This document shows, in pieces, positions 27,088 to 64,000 of a stretch of 64,000 nucleotides of DNA (position 1 is its first letter; every line of letters starts with the position of its first letter). This DNA is from Symploca sp. SIO1C2 (lineage in GTDB: Bacteria > Cyanobacteriota > Cyanobacteriia > Cyanobacteriales > Coleofasciculaceae). The notes beneath the pieces were generated by a model, which did not search any database, was not told the DNA's origin, and saw only the letters and a list, made by a program, of their open reading frames with translations. Both the position numbers and the translations under genes were made by a program. The DNA is taken from assembly GCA_010672925.1 (NCBI GenBank), contig JAAHFP010000026.1:1-64000 (forward strand). The letters run 5' to 3'.

Positions 27088-28428
27088 ATGACTACTACAG
27101 CAAAAGAATTTGATTTTATTTCTCCATCAGATGAAAAATCTGCTAAGCCTCAAGAACTCACCTATTTCCGTACTCTTTTATACGCGGGAATTGTGGGAGT
27201 TGCTGGAGGTTTAGTAGCAACTGTTTACTATTTTGTACTCGAACAGCTACTGGAATTGGTTTGGGAAGTAGGTAGAGAATCTGTTTTAAGATGGTTTCCT
27301 GTTTGGCTTCCCCACTGGAACTACACCTGGATAGTTGCAACCATTGGTGGGTTGGGTGTAGGACTGTGTTTGTATTACCTCGGCTTGCCGGGGGAAATGG
27401 CTGTTGTTATCGATCAAGTCCATGATGCAGGGCGTTTAGAGCCGAAACAAACCCCTGGTATGATTATTACTTCTTTGGTTTCAATTACCGCTGGAGGTAG
27501 CCTGGGACCAGAGGCTCCATTGGTGCAGATTAACGGCAGCATAGGAAGCTGGATTGCAGAAAAGCTAAAGCTGACCGTTCATAATATGCGGGTTATGACC
27601 TTTTGTGGTATGGGGGCAGCCTTAGCAGCTTTCTTTGGTGACCCAATTGGCGGCCCCTTATTTGCTTTAGAAATTCCCCATCGTCGAGGTCTTGAATATT
27701 ACGAAGCGATTATTCCAGCAATGGTGGCAGGAATTTGTAGCTTTGGGATTTTCCGCTTAGGAACAGGGTTGAAAGTCGGAGGTATCTATAACTTTGGTCG
27801 CTTTGGCGATTTACCCAGCCTCACTTGGTTCAATTTATTAGAAGGTATTGGTTTAGGCTTAGTTGGTGCTTTAGCAGGCATCTTCTTCATCGGTATGTTT
27901 CGTGTAATGAAGTGGATGATTCACAAGATTGAGCATCAGCATATTGTGTTAGCCCTTATGGGTGGATTGGGTATTGGCTGGATTGCAGTACTCTATCCCC
28001 CCACCCTCTTTTTTAGTGAGCAACAAATTGAAACTCAGCTATTGGCTCAGTCTACATCTTTTGGATTGGTAACTCTACTGGGTATTTGCTTTGCCAAGAT
28101 GTTGGCGATTTGCTTTACTATCCACGGTGGATTTAGGGGGGGATTTATTTTTCCGTTATTCTTCACTGGAGCTAGCTTAGGTTTGGCCATTGCTTTGGGT
28201 ATTCCCAGCATTCACCCTACTATTGCTATTTTGTGTTCCATGGCAGCAATTAATGTAGCAATTACGAAAACCCCTATCAGTACCACGATCATTTTGACGG
28301 TGTTGTCGGATACTACAATTTTACCGGTAATTGCGATCGCCAGTTTCACCAGTTTCCTCCTTACCAGTAATATCGGTTTGCTTAAAACCCAGAGGGCCAG
28401 AACAACAGCAACTCTCTCAGGTTACTAG
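27088..28428 (+). CDS. ClC-family chloride channel / H+-Cl- antiporter
   Basis: About 10-12 TM segments. The ClC selectivity motifs are GGSLGPEAP (GxEGP-like) and GGFRGGFIFPLFFTGASLG (GxFxP). Confidence 0.8.
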   Translation: MTTTAKEFDFISPSDEKSAKPQELTYFRTLLYAGIVGVAGGLVATVYYFVLEQLLELVWEVGRESVLRWFPVWLPHWNYTWIVATIGGLGVGLCLYYLGLPGEMAVVIDQVHDAGRLEPKQTPGMIITSLVSITAGGSLGPEAPLVQINGSIGSWIAEKLKLTVHNMRVMTFCGMGAALAAFFGDPIGGPLFALEIPHRRGLEYYEAIIPAMVAGICSFGIFRLGTGLKVGGIYNFGRFGDLPSLTWFNLLEGIGLGLVGALAGIFFIGMFRVMKWMIHKIEHQHIVLALMGGLGIGWIAVLYPPTLFFSEQQIETQLLAQSTSFGLVTLLGICFAKMLAICFTIHGGFRGGFIFPLFFTGASLGLAIALGIPSIHPTIAILCSMAAINVAITKTPISTTIILTVLSDTTILPVIAIASFTSFLLTSNIGLLKTQRARTTATLSGY

Positions 28429-28521
28429 TAAAAGTTGTTAGTATTGGTAATTTACTCTCCGGATATTGAGGATATTCCTTGGAAAAGAGGAGTGGTAGAT
28501 GATGTACCCTGATAATTATCC

Positions 28522-28560
28522 CCCGAAGTTCATTTCTCGGGGGTTCTTTATATTTTTGCA
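28522..28560 (+). terminator. Hairpin with a T-rich tail downstream of the ClC gene
   Basis: ccccgaagttcatttctcggggg followed by ttctttatattttt. Confidence 0.45.
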
Positions 28561-28932: not shown

Positions 28933-30531
28933 ATGATGAAATTTTTCCGTAAATTGCGATGGATGACTTTAGGAATAGTATTTTCCCTAATCCTTCATCT
29001 ATTACCAATTTTCACATTGACTCTTTCTGCTCAGTCTCAATCATCTTCTTCAGAAGGAAACTGTATTGCCGATGCTAATCTGCAAGGGTTAACTCGCGAG
29101 CAACTTCTGGAACAAGGTGACGAGTGTTTCCTAGAAGGAAATCGTGAAATAGCAGAACAATTCTATCGTCGAGCTAAGCCTCCTTTTAAAAAGCCAAAAC
29201 CTCAAGATAGATTTCCACTTTCTAAAAAATCTTCTGAAGAATTTGAAATTTTAGATCCCATTTTTGATGAAGAGGAATTATCTATCAGAGGTCGAACATT
29301 TTGGTCATCGTACCAAGAGTCTAAAAATAAACCAAAACTAGCAAGTGCTAAGTTTGCGCCTTTGTTTTTTTTAATTAAAAGTGATTCTAACTTCATTCCT
29401 GGCTATTTTGCCTTAGTTAACACTTTCAAAGAACATCCAGAATGGTGCAAGCGTGAAGCTAATGCCAAGATGTGTAACAATCAGCCTCACAATGCCCTTG
29501 AAGTTTTAGAACAAGGTACTGCTTTATATCCTGAAGAACCTAATTTGGTAGTAGCTAAAATTGATGAGTTAGTCACAGAAAAAGAGTTTCTAGAAGCTTC
29601 TATCGAAGCACGTCAATATTATATCAGTACAGGGGATAACGAGTTTGAAGAAAAAGCAGAAGAATATTTAGGACGTTATAAATCTGATTTAAGCTCTGAA
29701 TTAAAAGCAGCATCAGCAATTTGTGTTATTGCGAGTTCTTTGTTAGGGAATTTAAACAATTGTCAGATTCTAGGATTGTTGCTAAAAGGTGAATCGGAAT
29801 ACGGGAGGATTGTAGCTGAACAATTCAAAGAACAGCTACCGATAGTAGAGAAGCCTGAAGTCCTTGCTTATGTGGAAGATACGGCTTCTGCATTCCTTCC
29901 ATATATGGGACGAAATGACTTTGAATTTGAATTTAACGTGGTTGAAGATAATAGTCTCAATGCTTTTGCTTTACCAGGAGGAAAAATATTTATTAATACT
30001 GGTGCAATTCTTGGCACAAACTCAAGAGCAGAATTAGCGGGATTACTTGGTCATGAAGTTGCTCATTCTATCTATTCTCATACTTATCGAGATGCAGCAC
30101 AAGGAGCAATTTTAAATTCTTTTGGGGATATTTTCTTGAAGAATCTGCCCTATGATATCGAGATCTTAGGAAACAATTTTTCGGATATTCTCAAGTTAGG
30201 TATTACGATGCTTAGCAAAGCCTATAACAGAGATCAGGAAAGGGAAGCTGATATTTTAGGAACACGAGTTTTAGCTCAATCCGGTTATGCTGCTGATGGC
30301 TTGTACAATTTTATGGTGACAGTCCAAAATGTAGAAGAAGCTAATCAACCACCACCACAGGAAGGAGCATCTTTTCAAGATTTAATTCAGCCATTGTTAT
30401 CAACTCATCCAGAAACCCAAAACCGCGTCAGTTATTTACGAGAGTTAATTCGTAGTAATGGTTACAATCGTTATGTGTTAGAAGGTGTAGAAAAACACAA
30501 AGAAATGCAGAACTTGATTCAAAATTCCTAA
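28933..30531 (+). CDS. M48-family zinc metallopeptidase with an N-terminal signal peptide or anchor and a TPR-like region
   Basis: HEVAHSIYSH is the HExxH motif, with a downstream READILG glutamate. N-terminal hydrophobic helix MTLGIVFSLILHLLPIF. Confidence 0.75.
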   Translation: MMKFFRKLRWMTLGIVFSLILHLLPIFTLTLSAQSQSSSSEGNCIADANLQGLTREQLLEQGDECFLEGNREIAEQFYRRAKPPFKKPKPQDRFPLSKKSSEEFEILDPIFDEEELSIRGRTFWSSYQESKNKPKLASAKFAPLFFLIKSDSNFIPGYFALVNTFKEHPEWCKREANAKMCNNQPHNALEVLEQGTALYPEEPNLVVAKIDELVTEKEFLEASIEARQYYISTGDNEFEEKAEEYLGRYKSDLSSELKAASAICVIASSLLGNLNNCQILGLLLKGESEYGRIVAEQFKEQLPIVEKPEVLAYVEDTASAFLPYMGRNDFEFEFNVVEDNSLNAFALPGGKIFINTGAILGTNSRAELAGLLGHEVAHSIYSHTYRDAAQGAILNSFGDIFLKNLPYDIEILGNNFSDILKLGITMLSKAYNRDQEREADILGTRVLAQSGYAADGLYNFMVTVQNVEEANQPPPQEGASFQDLIQPLLSTHPETQNRVSYLRELIRSNGYNRYVLEGVEKHKEMQNLIQNS

Positions 30532-50465: not shown

Positions 50466-53400
50466 ATGAATAGCTCCTTCCTCTCTCACCTCCATAGTCC
50501 TCAGCGCCCGGTTATTGTCTTCGATGGGGCCATGGGAACCTCCCTACAAACCCAAAACCTCACCGCAGAAGACTTTGGTGGGCCAGAATACGAAGGATGT
50601 AATGAATATCTGGTACATACCAAACCAGAAGCAGTGGCACAGGTGCATCGAGAATTCCTGGAAGCGGGAGCCGATGTAATTGAAACTGATACTTTTGGTA
50701 GTAGCTCTACCGTTCTAGCGGAATATAACTTAGCAGACCAAGCTTATTATTTAACTAAGAAAGCAGCTGAATTAGCTAAGAGTGTAGCAGCAGAATACTC
50801 GACTCCAGAAAAACCTAGATTTGTTGCTGGTTCTATGGGTCCTACTACTAAGTTACCAACCCTGGGACATATTGATTTCGACACGATGGCAGCATCTTTT
50901 GCCGAACAAGCAGAAGGTTTGTATGACGGGGGAGTTGATTTATTTATTGTAGAAACTTGTCAGGATGTGTTGCAAATTAAAGCGGCACTTAATGGTATAG
51001 AAGAGGTATTTCAGCGGAAAGGGGAACGTCTGCCGCTGATGGTTTCTATCACGATGGAAGTGATGGGTACAATGTTGGTGGGTTCGGAAATCAGTGCCGC
51101 CCTAACGATTTTGGAACGCTACCCCATTGATATTATGGGTCTCAATTGTGCCACAGGGCCAGACCGGATGCAGGAGCATATCAAGTATCTGTCGGAGTAT
51201 TCCCCCTTTGTGGTTTCTTGTATTCCGAATGCGGGACTGCCGGAAAATATTGGCGGACATGCTCACTACAAGCTTACTCCGATGGAGCTGCGGATGGCGC
51301 TGATACATTTTATCGAAGATTTAGGTGTGCAGGTCATTGGCGGCTGTTGCGGTACTCGCCCGGATCATATTCAACAGTTAGCAGAAATTGCCAAGACTCT
51401 CAAGCCGAAGGAACGTCATCCTAAATATGAACCTTCCGCTGCTTCTATATACAGTACCCAAACCTACGAACAAGATAACTCTTTCTTAATTGTCGGTGAA
51501 CGACTCAATGCTAGTGGTTCTAAAAAATGCCGCAACCTACTCAATGAAGAAGATTGGGATGGCTTGGTTTCTTTGGCCAAATCCCAAGTTAAGGAAGGCG
51601 CTCATATTTTAGATGTGAACGTGGATTATGTGGGGCGTGACGGTGTACGGGATATGAATGAATTGGCGTCCCGTTTGGTAACTAATGTTACCTTACCCCT
51701 GATGCTGGACTCCACGGAATGGGAAAAAATGGAGGCTGGTTTAAAAGTGGTTGGGGGTAAGTGCCTGCTCAATTCCACCAACTATGAAGATGGAGAGCCT
51801 CGTTTCCTCAAGGTACTAGAGTTGGCGAAAAAGTACGGTGCGGGAGTCGTAATTGGTACCATTGATGAAGATGGTATGGCGAGAACCGCAGATAAGAAAT
51901 TTGCGATCGCTAAACGTGCCTATGATCAAGCAGTAGAATATGGTATTCCTCCCCACGAGATCTTTTTTGATACCCTAGCCCTACCAATTTCTACTGGTAT
52001 TGAAGAAGATAGAGCTAATGGTCAGGCAACAATTGAATCAATTAAACGCATCCGAGAAGAGTTACCAGGCTGTCATGTTATTCTAGGGGTTTCTAATATT
52101 TCCTTTGGACTCAATCCCGCCGCTAGGATGGTACTCAACTCCATGTTCCTCCACGAAGCAATGCAGGTAGGGATGGATTCCGCCATTGTCAGTGCGAGTA
52201 AGATTCTGCCTTTAGCCAAAATTGAGCCAGAACATCAGGAACTCTGTCGAAAACTAATTTATGACCAACGGGAATTTGAGGGAGATGTCTGTACCTTTGA
52301 CCCCCTAGGTGAGCTTACCACTGTATTTGCGGGCAAAACCACCAAACGCGATCGCTCGGAAGATGAAAATCTACCTGTGGAAGAACGCCTCAAGCGTCAT
52401 ATTATTGATGGAGAAAGGATTGGTTTGGAAGAGCAGCTAGACAAGGCTCTGCAAAATTATCCCCCCCTCGATATTATTAATGTCTTCCTCTTAGATGGTA
52501 TGAAAGTCGTCGGGGAACTATTTGGTTCAGGGCAAATGCAACTACCTTTTGTACTGCAATCTGCTCAAACCATGAAAGCCGCTGTAGCTCATCTCGAACC
52601 ATTTATGGAGACAGATGGGGCTAGTAATAGTGCCAAGGGAACGGTGGTAATTGCTACGGTGAAAGGAGATGTTCACGATATCGGGAAAAACTTAGTAGAT
52701 ATCATCCTTTCTAATAATGGCTACAAAGTAGTCAACTTGGGCATCAAGCAGCCAGTGGAGAATATTATTGATGCCTATGAAGAACACCAAGCTGATTGCA
52801 TCGCCATGAGTGGGCTACTGGTGAAGTCCACTGCCTTTATGAAGGATAATCTAGAGACTTTCAACCAACGCAATATCACCGTACCAGTGATTTTAGGCGG
52901 TGCGGCCCTAACACCAAAATTTGTCCACGGAGATTGCCAGGATACTTACAATGGTCAGGTAGTTTACGGTAAGGATGCTTTTTCTGACCTCCATTTTATG
53001 GATAAATTGATGCCTGCCAAAGCTGCGGACGATTGGGATGATGCGCAGGGATTTTTGTCTGAAAATGGTAATGGTAATGGTAATGGACACAAATCAAATC
53101 AGCAGGAAGCAGGAGATGCGGAATCCAAGGAGGAAGTATCGGCATCATCCAAGGAAGACACCCCCAAGGTAGTAGATACTCGCCGTTCCGAAGCAGTAAC
53201 TTTAGACTTGGAACGTCCTACCCCACCATTCTGGGGAACTAAGATACTGCAACCAGAGGATATCCCCCTCGAAGAGTTATTCTGGTATCTGGATTTGCAA
53301 GCGACGATTGCCGGACAATGGCAGTTTCGTAAGCCAAAGGAGCAACCACGGGAAGAATACGACCAGTTTTTAGCAGATAAAGTTTACCCGATTCTGGAAG

Positions 53401-54023
53401 AATGGAAGCAACGGATCGTTGAAGAGAAGTTGTTGCAGCCTCAGGTAGTTTACGGCTATTTCCCCTGTCAGGCGGAAGGTAATTCCTTGTATATCTATGA
53501 GCCAGCAGCTTACCCTGAAGCCAAACCTGTCAGCAGTTTCGAGTTTCCCAGGCAAAAATCTGGACGCCGTCTGTGTATTGCCGACTTCTACGCGACCAAA
53601 GAGTCAGGCATTATCGATGTCTTCCCGATGCAAGCGGTAACCGTAGGAGAGGTTGCCACAGAATACGCCAAAAAGCTCTTTGATTCTGACGAATACACCA
53701 ATTATCTTTACTATCACGGCTTAGCAGTACAAATGGCAGAAGCTTTGGCAGAATGGACTCATGCCAGGATTCGTCGGGAGCTAGGATTTGCCAGTGAGGA
53801 ACCGGATAATATTCGGGATGTATTAGCGCAGCGTTATCAAGGTTCACGATATAGCTTCGGTTATCCTGCTTGTCCGAATATGCAAGACCAGTATAAACAG
53901 TTGGATTTATTAGGATGCGATCGCATTAACCTCTATATGGATGAGAGTGAGCAACTCTATCCGGAACAGTCTACCACTGCGATCATCACTTATCACCCAA
54001 TAGCTAGGTACTTCAGCGCTTAG
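50466..54023 (+). CDS. metH: Cobalamin-dependent methionine synthase
   Basis: 1185 aa covering all modules: the Hcy S-methyltransferase N-terminus (VFDGAMGT), the pterin-binding module, the B12-binding DxHxxG motif (GDVHDIGKN), and the AdoMet reactivation domain. Confidence 0.95.
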
Positions 54024-60674: not shown

Positions 60675-60959
60675 ATGAAAGAACAACTGATCCGTTGGTT
60701 CAACCAGTTATTAGTAGTAAATGTTTTTTTTGTTTTATTAAGCTTTGTTTGGTTTGCGATCGCGCTTTTGGGTCGCTCAGTTGGTGTACCTCTCGGTTTT
60801 GACCTCTGGTATAGTCTTTGGGAGCCTGTATTCACCCCGGCGATTGGTATTCTTATGGCAGGAGCACTGATAAGTGGGTTGATTAATTACGTATCTAAAC
60901 GACTCAAGGCAATGAGTGCAAGCGAAAGCCCCAACTTCTTGAAGAAATCGGGGCTATAA
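60675..60959 (+). CDS. Small membrane protein (2 TM), hypothetical
   Basis: LLVVNVFFVLLSFVWFAIALLG and ILMAGALISGLINYV. Confidence 0.4.
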   Translation: MKEQLIRWFNQLLVVNVFFVLLSFVWFAIALLGRSVGVPLGFDLWYSLWEPVFTPAIGILMAGALISGLINYVSKRLKAMSASESPNFLKKSGL

Positions 60960-61013
60960 GTCTGACTGGGAGATTTTAGATTTTAGATTTTAGATTTTAG
61001 ATTGAAGAATTAA

Positions 61014-61118
61014 TACCAAATCCGGTTCTCATATCAGGGTAAAAATAATTCAAAGTCCCCCATAATTGGGGGATTTAGGGGGCAAATGAATATCTTGTGT
61101 TTTAACCGGATTTGGTAT
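61014..61118. mobile_element. Short MITE-like element with perfect 15-bp terminal inverted repeats ATACCAAATCCGGTT/AACCGGATTTGGTAT. It is preceded by an (AGATTTT)n STRR
   Basis: TIRs at 61014-61028 and 61104-61118. The internal AGTCCCCCATAATTGGGGGATTTAGGGGGC module is shared with 43365. Confidence 0.6.
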
Positions 61119-61167
61119 AGAAAGGTTACAAACCCCTAAATTTACTTATGGGGTAAATCTCAAATCT

Positions 61168-62199
61168 TCAATTGTTCATTGCTTGCTCAATTTGAGTTTG
61201 GTTAAGCTCACGCCCAATTAGTACTAGGCGCGTCTGGCGAGATTCCTGTGCTTGCCAAGGTCGATCATAGAAAGTTTCCAGGCGATTGCCTACCCCTTGT
61301 AACACCATACGCATGGGTTTTTGAGGAACATCAACAAAACCTTTAATACGATAAATTTCTTGTTGTTGTACCAACTCTTGAAGTTTACTGATCAAAGCTT
61401 TTGGTTCAAATGCCTGTTCTGAGATAAATTGCACACTGGTAATATCATCATCATGGTCATGGTCTTCTTCCGTATCATGATGACTGGGACGACTATCCAG
61501 GTTATCTTCTACCGCTGCATTAAAACCTAGCAAAATATCAGGTTGAATCTGTCCTTCACCACAGGGGACAATCTTTACTCCAGGGGATAACTCCTGTTGT
61601 AACCACTCCATTACCTTAGTAAGGCTTGCTTCATCAACCAAATCCACCTTGGTAAGTAAAACTAAATCCGCACAAGCTAATTGGTCTTCAAATAGCTCCT
61701 CAATTGGCGTCTCATGCTCCAAATTAGGGTCAGCTTGACGTTGAGCTTCCAAAGCATCCAAATCACCTACTAGAGTACCAGCAGCTAGGGCTTCGCAGTC
61801 TACCACGGTTATTACACCATCAACTGTTGCACCATTACGAATTTCTGGCCAGCGGAAAGCTTGTACTAAAGGTTTAGGTAAAGCTAATCCTGACGTTTCG
61901 ATTAGCATACAATCAATCTGCTCTCGACGCTGGAGAAGTTGTTGCATGGTGGGGAAAAATTCTTCTTGAACAGTACAGCACAGACAACCGTTGGTAAGTT
62001 CCACAATATTATCTGCGGGGTCTTCTTCATCACAAACTTGGCAAGACCGCAATAACTCGCCATCAATTCCTACTTCACCAAACTCATTGACAACAACAGC
62101 AATGCGGCGTCCTTGATTGTTTTGCAGTAAATGGCGAACCAGAGTAGTTTTGCCAGCACCAAGAAAGCCAGTAACGACAGTAACGGGTATTTTATGCAT
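61168..62199 (-). CDS. cobW: COG0523 (CobW/YeiR-type) metallochaperone GTPase
   Basis: [10 protein letters not shown]-loop, CLCCT metal-binding motif, and a His/Asp-rich linker [13 protein letters not shown]. Confidence 0.85.
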
Positions 62200-62209
62200 T
62201 TTAAAAATG

Positions 62210-62360
62210 GGTAATTGGGAATTGGGAATTGGGAATTGGGAATTGGGAATGGAGAATGGAGAATGGAGAATTGGGAATTGGGAATTGATATTAAGCTAAA
62301 GAGGTATTGAAGTTGGTTAGTCCTAATTTTTTCCTAAAACCTAAAACCTACCACCTAACA
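62210..62360. repeat. STRR cluster (GGGAATT)n, (GGAGAAT)n, (CCTAAAA/CCTAACA)n
   Basis: gggaattgggaattgggaattgggaattgggaatggagaatggagaatggagaattgggaattgggaattg ... cctaaaacctaaaacctaccacctaacacctaacc. Confidence 0.8.
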
Positions 62361-62361
62361 C

Positions 62362-63075
62362 CTAACCAAGGATGCTAGAAGAGAGGAATGCTGCACCGGC
62401 ACCGCAAATAGTGTAGCCAGCAAATCGCAGTACTAAGGTGGGTTGTTCGGTAACTTGCTTCATGGCATACTTACCAACCTGGAAAGCAGACAAAGCGATC
62501 GCTAATTGAATTAGAGTGAAGCCTGCCAAATAACCTACTAAGGGTGTCATTTCGGCTCCCACAACTGCTTCACCGTAAGCGTAACCGTGAAACAAACCGG
62601 CGATTGCTGCTAGGGCTGCCATCACCATTGAGCTTGGGCTATTCTTGAGTGCTAACATCACACCAAATAGCAGTACAGAAGCGGAAATAATCACTTCAGG
62701 GATCGGTAAATCTAGGCTCATTAAGTGAATTCCGGTTCCTGCCACCGCTGCCACAACAAAAGCAATAGGAATCAAAATACCCCGCTCTTTGATGGCTGCT
62801 AACAAACCAACTGCAACAACGAAGGCCAAATGATCTGGACCAATTATCGGGTGACCAAAGCCAGAGAATAAGCCTTCAAAGAAATTGGAGGGAGTTTCAC
62901 CACCAAAGGGGTGGTGTGCCGCTGCTGGAGTAGCTGATAGAAGGAGACTAATTGCCACCACCAAAGCGATCGCTTTTGCCAGTGCCCTAAGAGAGCTATT
63001 GACGCTAAATAAAAATCCTTTTTTACCAGTCTGGAGTTTGGTAGTTTTCATCTTTAACATGTATTGATGCCTCAT
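62362..63075 (-). CDS. HupE/UreJ-family metal (Ni/Co) transporter
   Basis: Signal peptide then AAAHHPFGG. HPIIGPDHL. About 6 TM helices. Family-level match. Confidence 0.7.
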   Translation of the reverse strand: MRHQYMLKMKTTKLQTGKKGFLFSVNSSLRALAKAIALVVAISLLLSATPAAAHHPFGGETPSNFFEGLFSGFGHPIIGPDHLAFVVAVGLLAAIKERGILIPIAFVVAAVAGTGIHLMSLDLPIPEVIISASVLLFGVMLALKNSPSSMVMAALAAIAGLFHGYAYGEAVVGAEMTPLVGYLAGFTLIQLAIALSAFQVGKYAMKQVTEQPTLVLRFAGYTICGAGAAFLSSSILG

Positions 63076-63239
63076 TCGCTATAAATAACAGTTAATTGTG
63101 TTCACTCATCTCCCAGCCAAAACACAGGGGATTGTACTGGGCTTCGCCGAGCTACGCTAAAGTGTTAGCTGGTTGTTTGTCAAAAAACAAAGAACAAACA
63201 ACAAAGAACAAACAACAAAGCTGCGGGGGACTATCCCTC

Positions 63240-63662
63240 CTATCCATTAAGGAATGGGTTCCCCGCCGCTTCCGGTAACGGTGGAATCCTTGCTAAGATA
63301 CCTTTTTTCAGTAGTTCAGGTCGCTCTGACCAAGGCAACAAGCCATCGGCTTTGGCATAATATAGACTGGCACAATCGAGTACAGCAGTAGAGATGGTTG
63401 GTAGGGTTTCTTCAGCAGTAGCTAAACCACCAAACACATAAGTATATTTGCTCATAGCAGCAAAGGAAATGGCACAGGGGCGACTGCAAGCGCTCATACA
63501 CTCTACAGGCTTAATGGAAAATTCAGCTTGTAAGTCCCAGTTTTGGTGGAGATCTGACAACTGCTCTAGCAGTTTTTGTCCACCGCTAATGCCTACTCGC
63601 TTTCCTTCTTTCCAGGTACTAGCGCAAGTTGTGCAAACGAAAAGAGTATGGGGGATTTTCAC
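63240..63662 (-). CDS. DUF1636-family metal-binding protein
   Basis: HTLFVCTTCAS...CMSACSRPC Cys pattern. GTG start at 63662. Confidence 0.65.
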   Translation of the reverse strand: MKIPHTLFVCTTCASTWKEGKRVGISGGQKLLEQLSDLHQNWDLQAEFSIKPVECMSACSRPCAISFAAMSKYTYVFGGLATAEETLPTISTAVLDCASLYYAKADGLLPWSERPELLKKGILARIPPLPEAAGNPFLNG

Positions 63663-63699
63663 GTTAATTACCGAATGATTGAGGAGTTTCTCAAAATAA

Positions 63700-63930
63700 A
63701 AATCAGGGACTTTGAGCGGTTCTTCGGTAATGTTTTTTTTAAGATCATCTATACCTCGCAGATGAGTATTTGCTACTAGTTCACGTCGGCGGGCATTCTG
63801 GCTATTGAGACTAGGAACAGTCTCATTACAGCTGCGGGACAGCGTCGGATTTCCACCGAACTTTCCCCGTTAACTCTGATGGCTGGTTCCCACCAGAACC
63901 GACTGATTGATTAGAGTATCACAACTTTGG
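63700..63930 (-). promoter_or_regulatory. Cobalamin (B12) riboswitch leader of the DUF1636-hupE/ureJ-cobW operon
   Basis: The minus-strand sequence acggggaaagttcggtggaaatccgacgctgtcccgcagctgtaatgag fits the B12 aptamer core (GGGAA..GGTG.AA.TCC...GC.GTCCCGC..CTGTAA). The downstream agccagaatgcccgcc fits the B12-box (rAGYCMGgAgaCCkGCc). Confidence 0.6.
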
Positions 63931-64000
63931 CTGGGTTAAAACTCCCCAATATTGATGCTGGTGGCGAAATTAATGTTTGTTTACTGCATGGGGAGCTGGG

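Follow-up and report, generated by a model that had tools for sequence, protein, structure and literature searches.

We analysed a 64,000-nucleotide (nt) stretch of the genome of Symploca sp. SIO1C2 (contig JAAHFP010000026.1, positions 1 to 64,000 of the forward strand; hereafter the window), the minus strand of which carries a cobalamin (Cbl, vitamin B12) riboswitch followed by the genes for a DUF1636 protein, a HupE/UreJ permease and CobW. Judging from the sequence, what the switch controls appears to be a 26-codon leader open reading frame (ORF) and not the start codon of the first gene itself. On balance, we lean towards the view that an OFF-riboswitch exerts feedback on the supply of cobalt for B12 synthesis through this leader ORF, and that DUF1636 is translated by termination-reinitiation. 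B12 feedback on genes for cobalt uptake and cobalt chaperones is already well described, having been textbook matter of comparative genomics since 2003-2007, and the leader-ORF architecture is the sole aspect of the cluster that is not routine, itself with a precedent.

Cobalamin aptamer and regulatory hairpin

A scan of the whole window with Rfam cmscan gave a single match to RF00174 (Cobalamin), which reaches 54.0 bits (gathering score 31.5; E 1.2e-10) and spans the full model, positions 1-189 (Table 1). Re-scanning 60900..64000 with permissive filters returned the same match (E 6e-12) and no further RNA family of any credibility, and within that interval no second RNA element, either a NiCo or a further Cbl riboswitch, was found before hupE or cobW at E <= 1. 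The initial annotation of this DNA had proposed the riboswitch on the understanding that it would be given up if Infernal returned no significant RF00174 match on the minus strand of 63700..63930; the match lies on that strand and inside that interval, so the observation stands. All the sequence strings quoted in the annotation were likewise located on the minus strand.

The aptamer has the B12 box and the four-way-junction core by which cobalamin riboswitches are recognised, and the minimum-free-energy (MFE) fold recovers P1, P2, P4 and P6. The large peripheral P6 extension (P8-P12) of Class I (adenosylcobalamin, AdoCbl) riboswitches, the criterion that defines this class (PMC11260477), is absent, the 57-nt insertion of the consensus being reduced to 9 nt and one 6-bp hairpin in the covariance-model (CM) alignment and in the fold. 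The ligand would be cobalamin, most likely pseudocobalamin, the corrinoid mostly made by cyanobacteria (PMC8123684). A putative sigma-70-type promoter overlaps the upstream end of the aptamer, and its predicted transcription start, close to 63904, falls at the 5′ boundary of P1. This promoter block is kept in the Symploca-type relatives (loci L011, L012, L013 and L139), with TCTAAT, GATAAT or GCTAAT as the −10 element; in the window it was missed by a consensus scan because position 2 of the −10 element is C.

Directly 3′ of the aptamer lies a conserved hairpin, the equivalent of P13/L13. Its loop carries the Shine-Dalgarno (SD)-like sequence GAGG (63757..63754), and its 3′ arm ends with an AUG (63748..63746) located 5 nt past the SD. 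The hairpin motif occurs only once in the window, and 100 shuffles yielded 0 matches with <=2 mismatches allowed. With minor loop variants, the hairpin stands directly 3′ of the aptamer in every related riboswitch-bearing locus, and in the 8 metagenome loci that were checked it is directly preceded by an RF00174 match.

In other species, the AUG of this hairpin is the start codon of a full-length gene, namely that of HupE in Okeania and Dapis (L001-L004) and that of DUF1636 in Nostoc sp. 106C (L018). We surveyed 138 instances of the hairpin, a sample picked by the hairpin motif and composed of the hits of a metagenome scan together with the earlier loci. The hairpin AUG starts 35 long ORFs, encoding HupE, DUF1636, TonB receptors, CbiM and a CbiX-like protein, and opens only a short ORF in 99 of the 138 instances. 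Because this AUG is the real start of HupE, DUF1636 and other long ORFs elsewhere, the hairpin is, on the grounds of comparative sequence, a working translation-initiation region.

In position and content, the hairpin matches P13/L13 of structurally characterised Cbl riboswitches. The docking of L13 on L5, which forms a kissing loop, is a general mechanism of these riboswitches (PMC9600662; PMC7689651 section 5.3.1). Specifically, the loop GCGAGGUAU of the window (63759..63751) can pair with L5 (63839..63835) through 5 pairs and one bulge (-5.2 kcal/mol), a value equalled by 19.5% of composition-matched shuffles, and both L5 and L13 are invariant across the loci studied here. A terminator scan predicted no intrinsic terminator or attenuator in the leader.

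Leader ORF and its junction with DUF1636

The leader ORF opened by the hairpin AUG ends with a UAA (63670..63668) 5 nt upstream of the GUG of DUF1636, and no SD-like motif is present within the 22 nt upstream of this GUG. In Symploca sp. SIO2E6 (L012), the leader differs from that of the window by a 1-nt and a 20-nt indel, and the tight junction is still kept: the leader ORF there has 36 codons, and its UGA stop overlaps the GUG as GUGA. Furthermore, we counted the junctions in 88 short-ORF loci having a downstream ORF of at least 90 amino acids (aa), with a stop-to-start gap of -4 to +5 taken as tight. Tight junctions were found at 12 of 88 loci in the AUG frame, versus 0 of 89 and 1 of 88 in two control frames; they are spread over about six independent lineages and precede three families, DUF1636, CbiM and an unannotated family of ~146 aa. 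The excess of junctions in the AUG frame, together with the junction kept in L012 despite the indels, argues that the frame and its end matter in the lineage of the window.

In the mechanism that we propose, one transcript would carry the aptamer, the hairpin, the 26-codon leader ORF and then DUF1636, HupE and CobW. When a corrinoid is bound, L5 (UCCCG) would dock on the hairpin loop, the SD GAGG and the AUG would be buried, and initiation at the leader ORF would be blocked. When corrinoid is scarce, the leader ORF would be translated, and the ribosome would melt the helix formed by TTACCGAA and TTCGGTAA, terminate at the UAA 5 nt before the GUG, and re-initiate at the SD-less GUG of DUF1636 by termination-reinitiation coupling. 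Less translation at the 5′ end would presumably lower hupE and cobW as well, through destabilisation of the transcript.

This architecture has a counterpart in Mycobacterium tuberculosis, where the B12 riboswitch of ppe2 controls an upstream ORF (uPPE2) and PPE2 is made by termination-reinitiation, which needs translation of the upstream ORF (Kipkorir et al. 2024, PMC11260477). The sequence features of the ppe2 type are all found in the window, that is, SD and AUG within the regulatory platform, a main ORF without SD and a stop beside its start; as in ppe2, the SD belongs to the short upstream ORF and the switch would be turned OFF by B12. The two cases differ in that ppe2 comes from another phylum, governs other genes (ppe2-cobQ1-cobU) and has an AUGA overlap in place of the 5-nt gap before a GUG, and in that the mechanism of ppe2 has been demonstrated experimentally, whereas that of the window is read from its sequence. 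Control through the leader ORF would extend to cyanobacteria a mechanism so far demonstrated only in M. tuberculosis. A switch acting on a leader ORF also matters for the use of cyanobacterial Cbl riboswitches as genetic tools and for regulon annotation.

The possibility that the leader ORF is a relic of the N-terminus of HupE or DUF1636 was examined separately and rejected: local alignments with the N-termini of HupE (window, L001 and L004) and of DUF1636 (L018) were no better than shuffles (p ~0.2-0.4).

Several other families of leader ORFs and downstream genes were encountered in the survey. In Anabaena, Dolichospermum and Cuspidothrix (L005-L010, L029, L032, L068 and L135), the hairpin AUG opens a conserved 47-codon ORF (MNKSMNISIKINHF...GKRI; for example L009 4635..4778). 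Unlike other leader ORFs, it shows a third-codon-position bias (5/6/12 variable sites), with 13 synonymous to 19 non-synonymous changes versus 4:27 and 2:34 in the other frames, and it may, judged by this pattern, encode a real small protein under B12 control. The unannotated ~146-aa family (MRIKDSVWQGSFGYWQNLF...), which has no Pfam match, heads the genes downstream of a Cbl riboswitch leader ORF in 20 loci (including L020, L030, L033, L067, L098, L114 and L124); its start often abuts the stop of the leader ORF, and in some contigs it sits between the riboswitch and DUF1636. In addition, the module of hairpin and short ORF precedes metE in 13 loci (L057, L045 and others), with gaps of 109-701 nt past the leader ORF, and fatty-acid-desaturase-like genes in L074 and L123, the latter echoing an observation on ole1 (PMC2211319).

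Alternative explanations

A number of observations weigh against the coupling of DUF1636 to the leader ORF. The pairing of L5 with L13 fits a kissing loop, yet is statistically undistinctive. In the sister Symploca-type loci L013, L019 and L139, and in most cyanobacterial instances, 100-1400 nt separate the end of the short ORF from the gene, so coupling cannot be the general mechanism and may be unneeded here. The leader peptides of most groups are without purifying selection (no third-position bias). Initiation without an SD is common among cyanobacterial genes, and so the GUG of DUF1636 could initiate independently. Moreover, hupE and cobW lie ~160 nt from their upstream genes in a Rho-less cyanobacterium, and polarity across the operon can only be presumed.

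Much of this would suit a functional switch that acts on DUF1636, hupE and cobW at the RNA level, in which the short ORF is a by-product or relic of the SD/AUG hairpin, the GUG initiates independently of the leader ORF, and an untranslated or kissing-loop-locked leader leads to an unstable transcript or stalled elongation. As most short ORFs end 100-1400 nt before the gene, including those preceding metE and TonB receptors, a distance-independent mechanism must exist, and it could act here too; the unconstrained leader peptides and the frequency of SD-less starts point the same way. What such an account leaves unexplained is the excess of exact junctions, which is specific to the AUG frame (12/88 versus 0-1 of 88), and the persistence of the L012 junction through two indels, and the leader has no predicted terminator. 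We regard RNA-level control as a serious contender, though not a likely one.

The initial annotation had placed the control elsewhere, in the complementarity of TTACCGAA and TTCGGTAA just before the GTG, so that the ligand would govern a helix that could directly sequester the ribosome-binding site (RBS) of DUF1636. The complementarity exists: it forms a perfect 8-bp helix in the MFE fold, with a 3′ arm that stops 5 nt short of the GTG, inside a 30S footprint. However, there is no SD-like motif under or near the helix to be sequestered, its fold z-score is only -1.6, no alternative pairing joins it to the aptamer, and the conserved element adjacent to the aptamer is the SD/AUG hairpin (63764..63746) instead. 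The helix is identical in L011 but keeps only 5 of its 8 pairs in L012, with non-compensatory changes, and it was rejected as a conserved element because it is broken in that relative, whose DUF1636 protein is 84% identical. It lies within the leader ORF, the stop codon of which falls in its 3′ arm, and it may be at most a local structure opened by the translating ribosome. Direct sequestration of the RBS by this helix is improbable.

We consider similarly improbable a -1 shift on A AAA AAA (63740..63734), or polymerase slippage on the A8 run of which it is part (AAAAAAAA, 63740..63733), which would produce an N-terminally extended DUF1636, placed directly under the riboswitch, with the helix as stimulator of the frameshift. 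The A8 run stands just past the riboswitch-controlled AUG. A -1 shift on it leads into the frame of DUF1636, which is stop-free for 69 codons upstream of the GTG, and the helix begins 3 nt past the heptamer. Among the five substitutions that separate the leader ORF of the window from that of L011, read by hand, three are synonymous in the DUF1636 frame and one in the leader frame, but the sample is five only. Furthermore, a 3-nt spacer is shorter than at known -1 frameshift sites, the extension is unrelated to the N-termini of other family members, and in L012 the A run is missing and that frame is closed by TAA and TGA. If frameshifting were at work, replacement of AAAAAAAA by AAGAAGAA would alter the yield of DUF1636.

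Termination-reinitiation at the leader ORF remains the reading that we prefer for the window. For filamentous cyanobacteria at large, we put forward only tentatively that the regulated start of the Cbl riboswitch usually opens a short, unconstrained leader ORF and that B12 control works through translation of the leader. If this were true, B12 would act in this way on DUF1636, metE, cobalt transporters and TonB receptors alike, by termination-reinitiation where the leader stop abuts the gene start, and by some form of polarity that works without Rho where 100-1400 nt separate the two.

Table 1. Positions in the window of the riboswitch, the leader and the genes and repeats of the cluster.
Feature	Position	Strand	Details
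Putative sigma-70-type promoter	63910..63939	-	-35 TTAACC 63939..63934; 18-nt spacer; -10 TCTAAT 63915..63910
Cobalamin riboswitch aptamer, RF00174	63770..63918	-	cmscan
P1	63905..63899 paired with 63790..63782	-	CM alignment/fold
Aptamer core	63868..63822	-	String search; aligned to RF00174 consensus (GGGAA...GGUG.AA.CC...GCCACUG-like)
P5/L5	63843..63831	-	Loop UCCCG
P6 extension	63824..63807	-	One hairpin
B12 box AGCCAGAATGCCCGCC (RNA AGCCAGAAUGCCCGCC)	63803..63788	-	String search; aligned to RF00174 consensus
Regulatory hairpin (P13/L13 equivalent) CAUCUGCGAGGUAUAGAUG	63746..63764	-	Conserved; directly 3′ of aptamer
Leader ORF	63668..63748	-	26 codons + TAA; peptide MILKKTLPKNRSKSLIFILRNSSIIR; opened by hairpin AUG
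Helix TTACCGAA (63730..63723) paired with TTCGGTAA (63675..63668)	63668..63730	-	Perfect 8 bp; encloses two small hairpins
Quoted string TTACCGAAGAA	63730..63720	-	String search
Quoted string CATTCGGTAA	63677..63668	-	String search
DUF1636	63240..63662	-	140 aa; GTG start; PF07845, E 8e-42
HupE/UreJ permease	62362..63075	-	Longest ORF 237 aa; PF04955, E 7.4e-42
CobW	61168..62199	-	343 aa; PF02492 + PF07683 (CobW_C); TIGR02475 equivalog
Terminator-like hairpin TCCCCCAATTATGGGGGA	61056..61073	-	Weak U tract; ~95 nt past cobW stop
Heptamer tandem repeat TGGGAAT x11	62208..62287		Inflates intergenic gap
Further heptamer tandem repeats	62333..62366, 63181..63220		In operon
Further heptamer tandem repeat	60971..61003		Downstream

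DUF1636 as a predicted ferredoxin

The first gene of the cluster encodes a DUF1636 protein, as the initial annotation had recognised. A phmmer search matches it to PDB chain 9jn8_A (E 5.7e-18; 36-38% identity to 9jn8), which was deposited as 'thioredoxin-like ferredoxin of Rhodobacter capsulatus'. The AlphaFold2 (AF2) model of the protein (pLDDT 88) is best matched in Foldseek by the same structure (E 8e-11), followed by the [2Fe-2S] ferredoxins 1f37 (5e-4) and 1m2a of Aquifex. Residues C10, C13, C55 and C59 are invariant in 32 DUF1636 sequences, as is C97, and the first four of these cysteines match the ligand set proposed in PMC4520260. On the strength of the model, DUF1636 is predicted to be a thioredoxin-like [2Fe-2S] ferredoxin.

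A literature search for a link between 9jn8 'ORF378', or a thioredoxin-like ferredoxin, and R. capsulatus and cobalamin found nothing relevant in the literature covered; matches to 'ORF378' were set aside as they concern an unrelated Streptomyces tyrosinase caddie protein. Among the loci sampled here, DUF1636 is the commonest recognised family downstream of this type of riboswitch in cyanobacteria, and its partner genes differ (CobW, CbiJ, TonB receptor) but are always related to B12 or cobalt. DUF1636 is thus a well-defined candidate for a redox component that is missing from the insertion of cobalt or the handling of corrinoids.

DUF1636 is also found outside cyanobacteria. In Phaeobacter inhibens, a DUF1636 gene is the first after a Cbl riboswitch, at the head of the cob operon (bioRxiv 10.64898/2025.12.19.695462). 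The alphaproteobacterial proteins (P. inhibens; 9jn8 of R. capsulatus) and that of the window have the fold and the cysteine pattern of 9jn8 in common, whereas the former heads a large biosynthetic operon and the latter a three-gene cobalt-supply cassette.

HupE/UreJ and CobW

The second gene had been annotated as HupE/UreJ, an identity borne out by its Pfam match and by the signature HPxxGxDH, present as HPIIGPDH (encoded at 62853..62830); this motif in the first transmembrane helix is the hallmark of HupE/UreJ (PMC7689651 section 5.1.1.5). Its likely start is 63060, with GAGG 9 nt upstream, or 63051, and the gene is called at 229 aa in L011. Riboswitch-linked cyanobacterial HupE has been given a role in the uptake of cobalt, and either cobalt or methionine rescues hupE mutants of Synechocystis (both PMC7689651 section 5.1.1.5). 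By analogy, the HupE of the window is predicted to be a Co(II) importer. Its context agrees with such a role: the gene shares a riboswitch-led cluster with cobW, and the hairpin AUG is the start of its orthologues in L001-L004.

For the third gene, the initial annotation had the family right, a COG0523 metallochaperone, and its identity can be narrowed from a generic member to a true CobW by TIGR02475 (510.6 bits against a cut-off of 332.1). Models for Zn-type COG0523 proteins fail on it, with scores of 167 versus 600 for ZigA and 155 versus 361 for the YjiA-type PRK11537. Its sequence contains the P-loop GFLGAGKT and the CxCC motif (GCLCC, 61986..61975), and a His/Asp-rich stretch precedes the C-terminal CobW_C domain; all are motifs of CobW (PMC7689651 sections 5.4.2.1, 6.6), a GTP-dependent Co(II) metallochaperone that serves the late-insertion chelatase (PMC7689651). 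The remark that the roles of CobW and DUF1636 are poorly defined is therefore outdated for CobW, the role of which as Co(II) metallochaperone is established, and for DUF1636 a homologue has had its structure solved (9jn8).

Relation to known riboswitches and regulons

In comparison with the riboswitches of T. tengcongensis (4GMA) and env8 (4FRN), the window has the same four-way-junction aptamer, B12 box and RBS-bearing 3′ hairpin able to pair with L5, whereas its P6 extension is reduced to one hairpin and its kissing loop is a candidate pairing only. As for the regulated genes, cobW and hupE had been listed among genes preceded by B12 elements by 2007 (PMC2211319), and such linkage is also described in PMC2667541 and PMC7689651. 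The window resembles the cyanobacterial hupE/cobW regulon (Synechocystis HupE; the B12-element regulon of Rodionov/Vitreschak) in having RF00174 upstream of HupE/UreJ and CobW. It departs from this regulon in that DUF1636 comes first and HupE second, and in that the start codon controlled by the riboswitch opens a leader ORF, not the transporter gene.

Gene order in relatives

The initial annotation had suggested a comparison of synteny with other Nostocales. Symploca, however, belongs to the order Coleofasciculales, and when the comparison was run, true Nostocales were found to pair DUF1636 with CbiJ or with a TonB receptor operon, not with HupE and CobW. A contig search with the single DUF1636 protein yielded 10 loci at 60-68% identity, and closer relatives were obtained through homologous proteins and the contigs encoding them. 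The closest DUF1636 protein, 97% identical, is from a metagenome-assembled genome (MAG) of Symploca sp. SIO1B1, in which the gene order agrees with that of the window even past cobW and the leader is ~97% identical; the next Symploca relative is L012.

Behind the riboswitch, the order is DUF1636, HupE, CobW in Symploca; HupE, DUF1636, CobW in Okeania and Dapis; DUF1636, CobW in Coleofasciculus and Microcoleus; DUF1636, CbiJ in Nostoc and Calothrix; and DUF1636, TonB receptor, DUF7676, periplasmic binding protein in Anabaena and Dolichospermum. Of 18 related loci from genomes or MAGs, 17 have an RF00174 match upstream of the cassette that contains DUF1636. Together with the identities of the genes, this upholds the proposal made at the outset that the cluster serves B12-responsive acquisition or insertion of a metal, predicted to be cobalt.

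Some of these loci have features of their own. Calothrix sp. NIES-2100 (L017, 4541..5001) is the only examined DUF1636 locus with neither an RF00174 match nor the hairpin, despite an ample gap of 460 nt. In Anabaena-type loci (L009, 5646..9902), the genes after DUF1636 encode a TonB-dependent receptor, a DUF7676 protein and a Peripla_BP_2 binding protein; from its gene content, this type of cluster resembles an operon for the uptake of corrinoids or cobalt, under riboswitch control and headed by the ferredoxin-like gene. In addition, Nostoc sp. 106C (L018, 8819..8900) has an AdoCbl-II (RF01689) element upstream of a gene with a NIR_SIR domain, and Dolichospermum (L005, 997..1136, minus strand) has a second RF00174 upstream of a CbiM gene.

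Operon structure and surroundings

On the minus strand between 60800 and 64000, the only terminator-like site follows cobW, so the three genes are uninterrupted by terminators. The intergenic gaps of ~160 nt in the window contrast with gaps of 19 and 118 nt in L013, 12 nt in L014 and 26 nt in L139; because the same genes are tightly packed in these relatives, the wide gaps appear to be lineage-specific expansions of the heptamer repeats listed in Table 1. A single operon is well supported by the gene order, the tight spacing in relatives and the lack of an interrupting terminator, as read from the sequences. Further heptamer units include CCTAACA, CAAAGAA and AGATTTT, as well as AGCTCCC upstream of the riboswitch in L011 (250..320). 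The terminator-like hairpin is enclosed by a perfect 15-nt inverted repeat, ATACCAAATCCGGTT / AACCGGATTTGGTAT (61013..61027 with 61104..61118), which could be a MITE-like insertion (miniature inverted-repeat transposable element) or an extended 3′ stem-loop.

The gene for B12-dependent metH, pointed out in the initial annotation as lying 7 kb away, is real (50466..54023, plus strand; TIGR02082, 1591 bits against a cut-off of 1011). Its proximity is not kept in relatives, where the flanks of the cassette vary from lineage to lineage (L012-L016) and include no metH, and is probably incidental. At a greater distance, the window contains a single match to NsiR1 (RF02399) at 28493..28551 on the plus strand, between the ORFs 27088..28428 and 28933..30531 (plus strand), with a score of 39.3 against a gathering score of 39. 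NsiR1 is known from heterocystous Nostocales, and the match in this Symploca-like window could be a borderline false positive or else an NsiR1-like small RNA outside this order.

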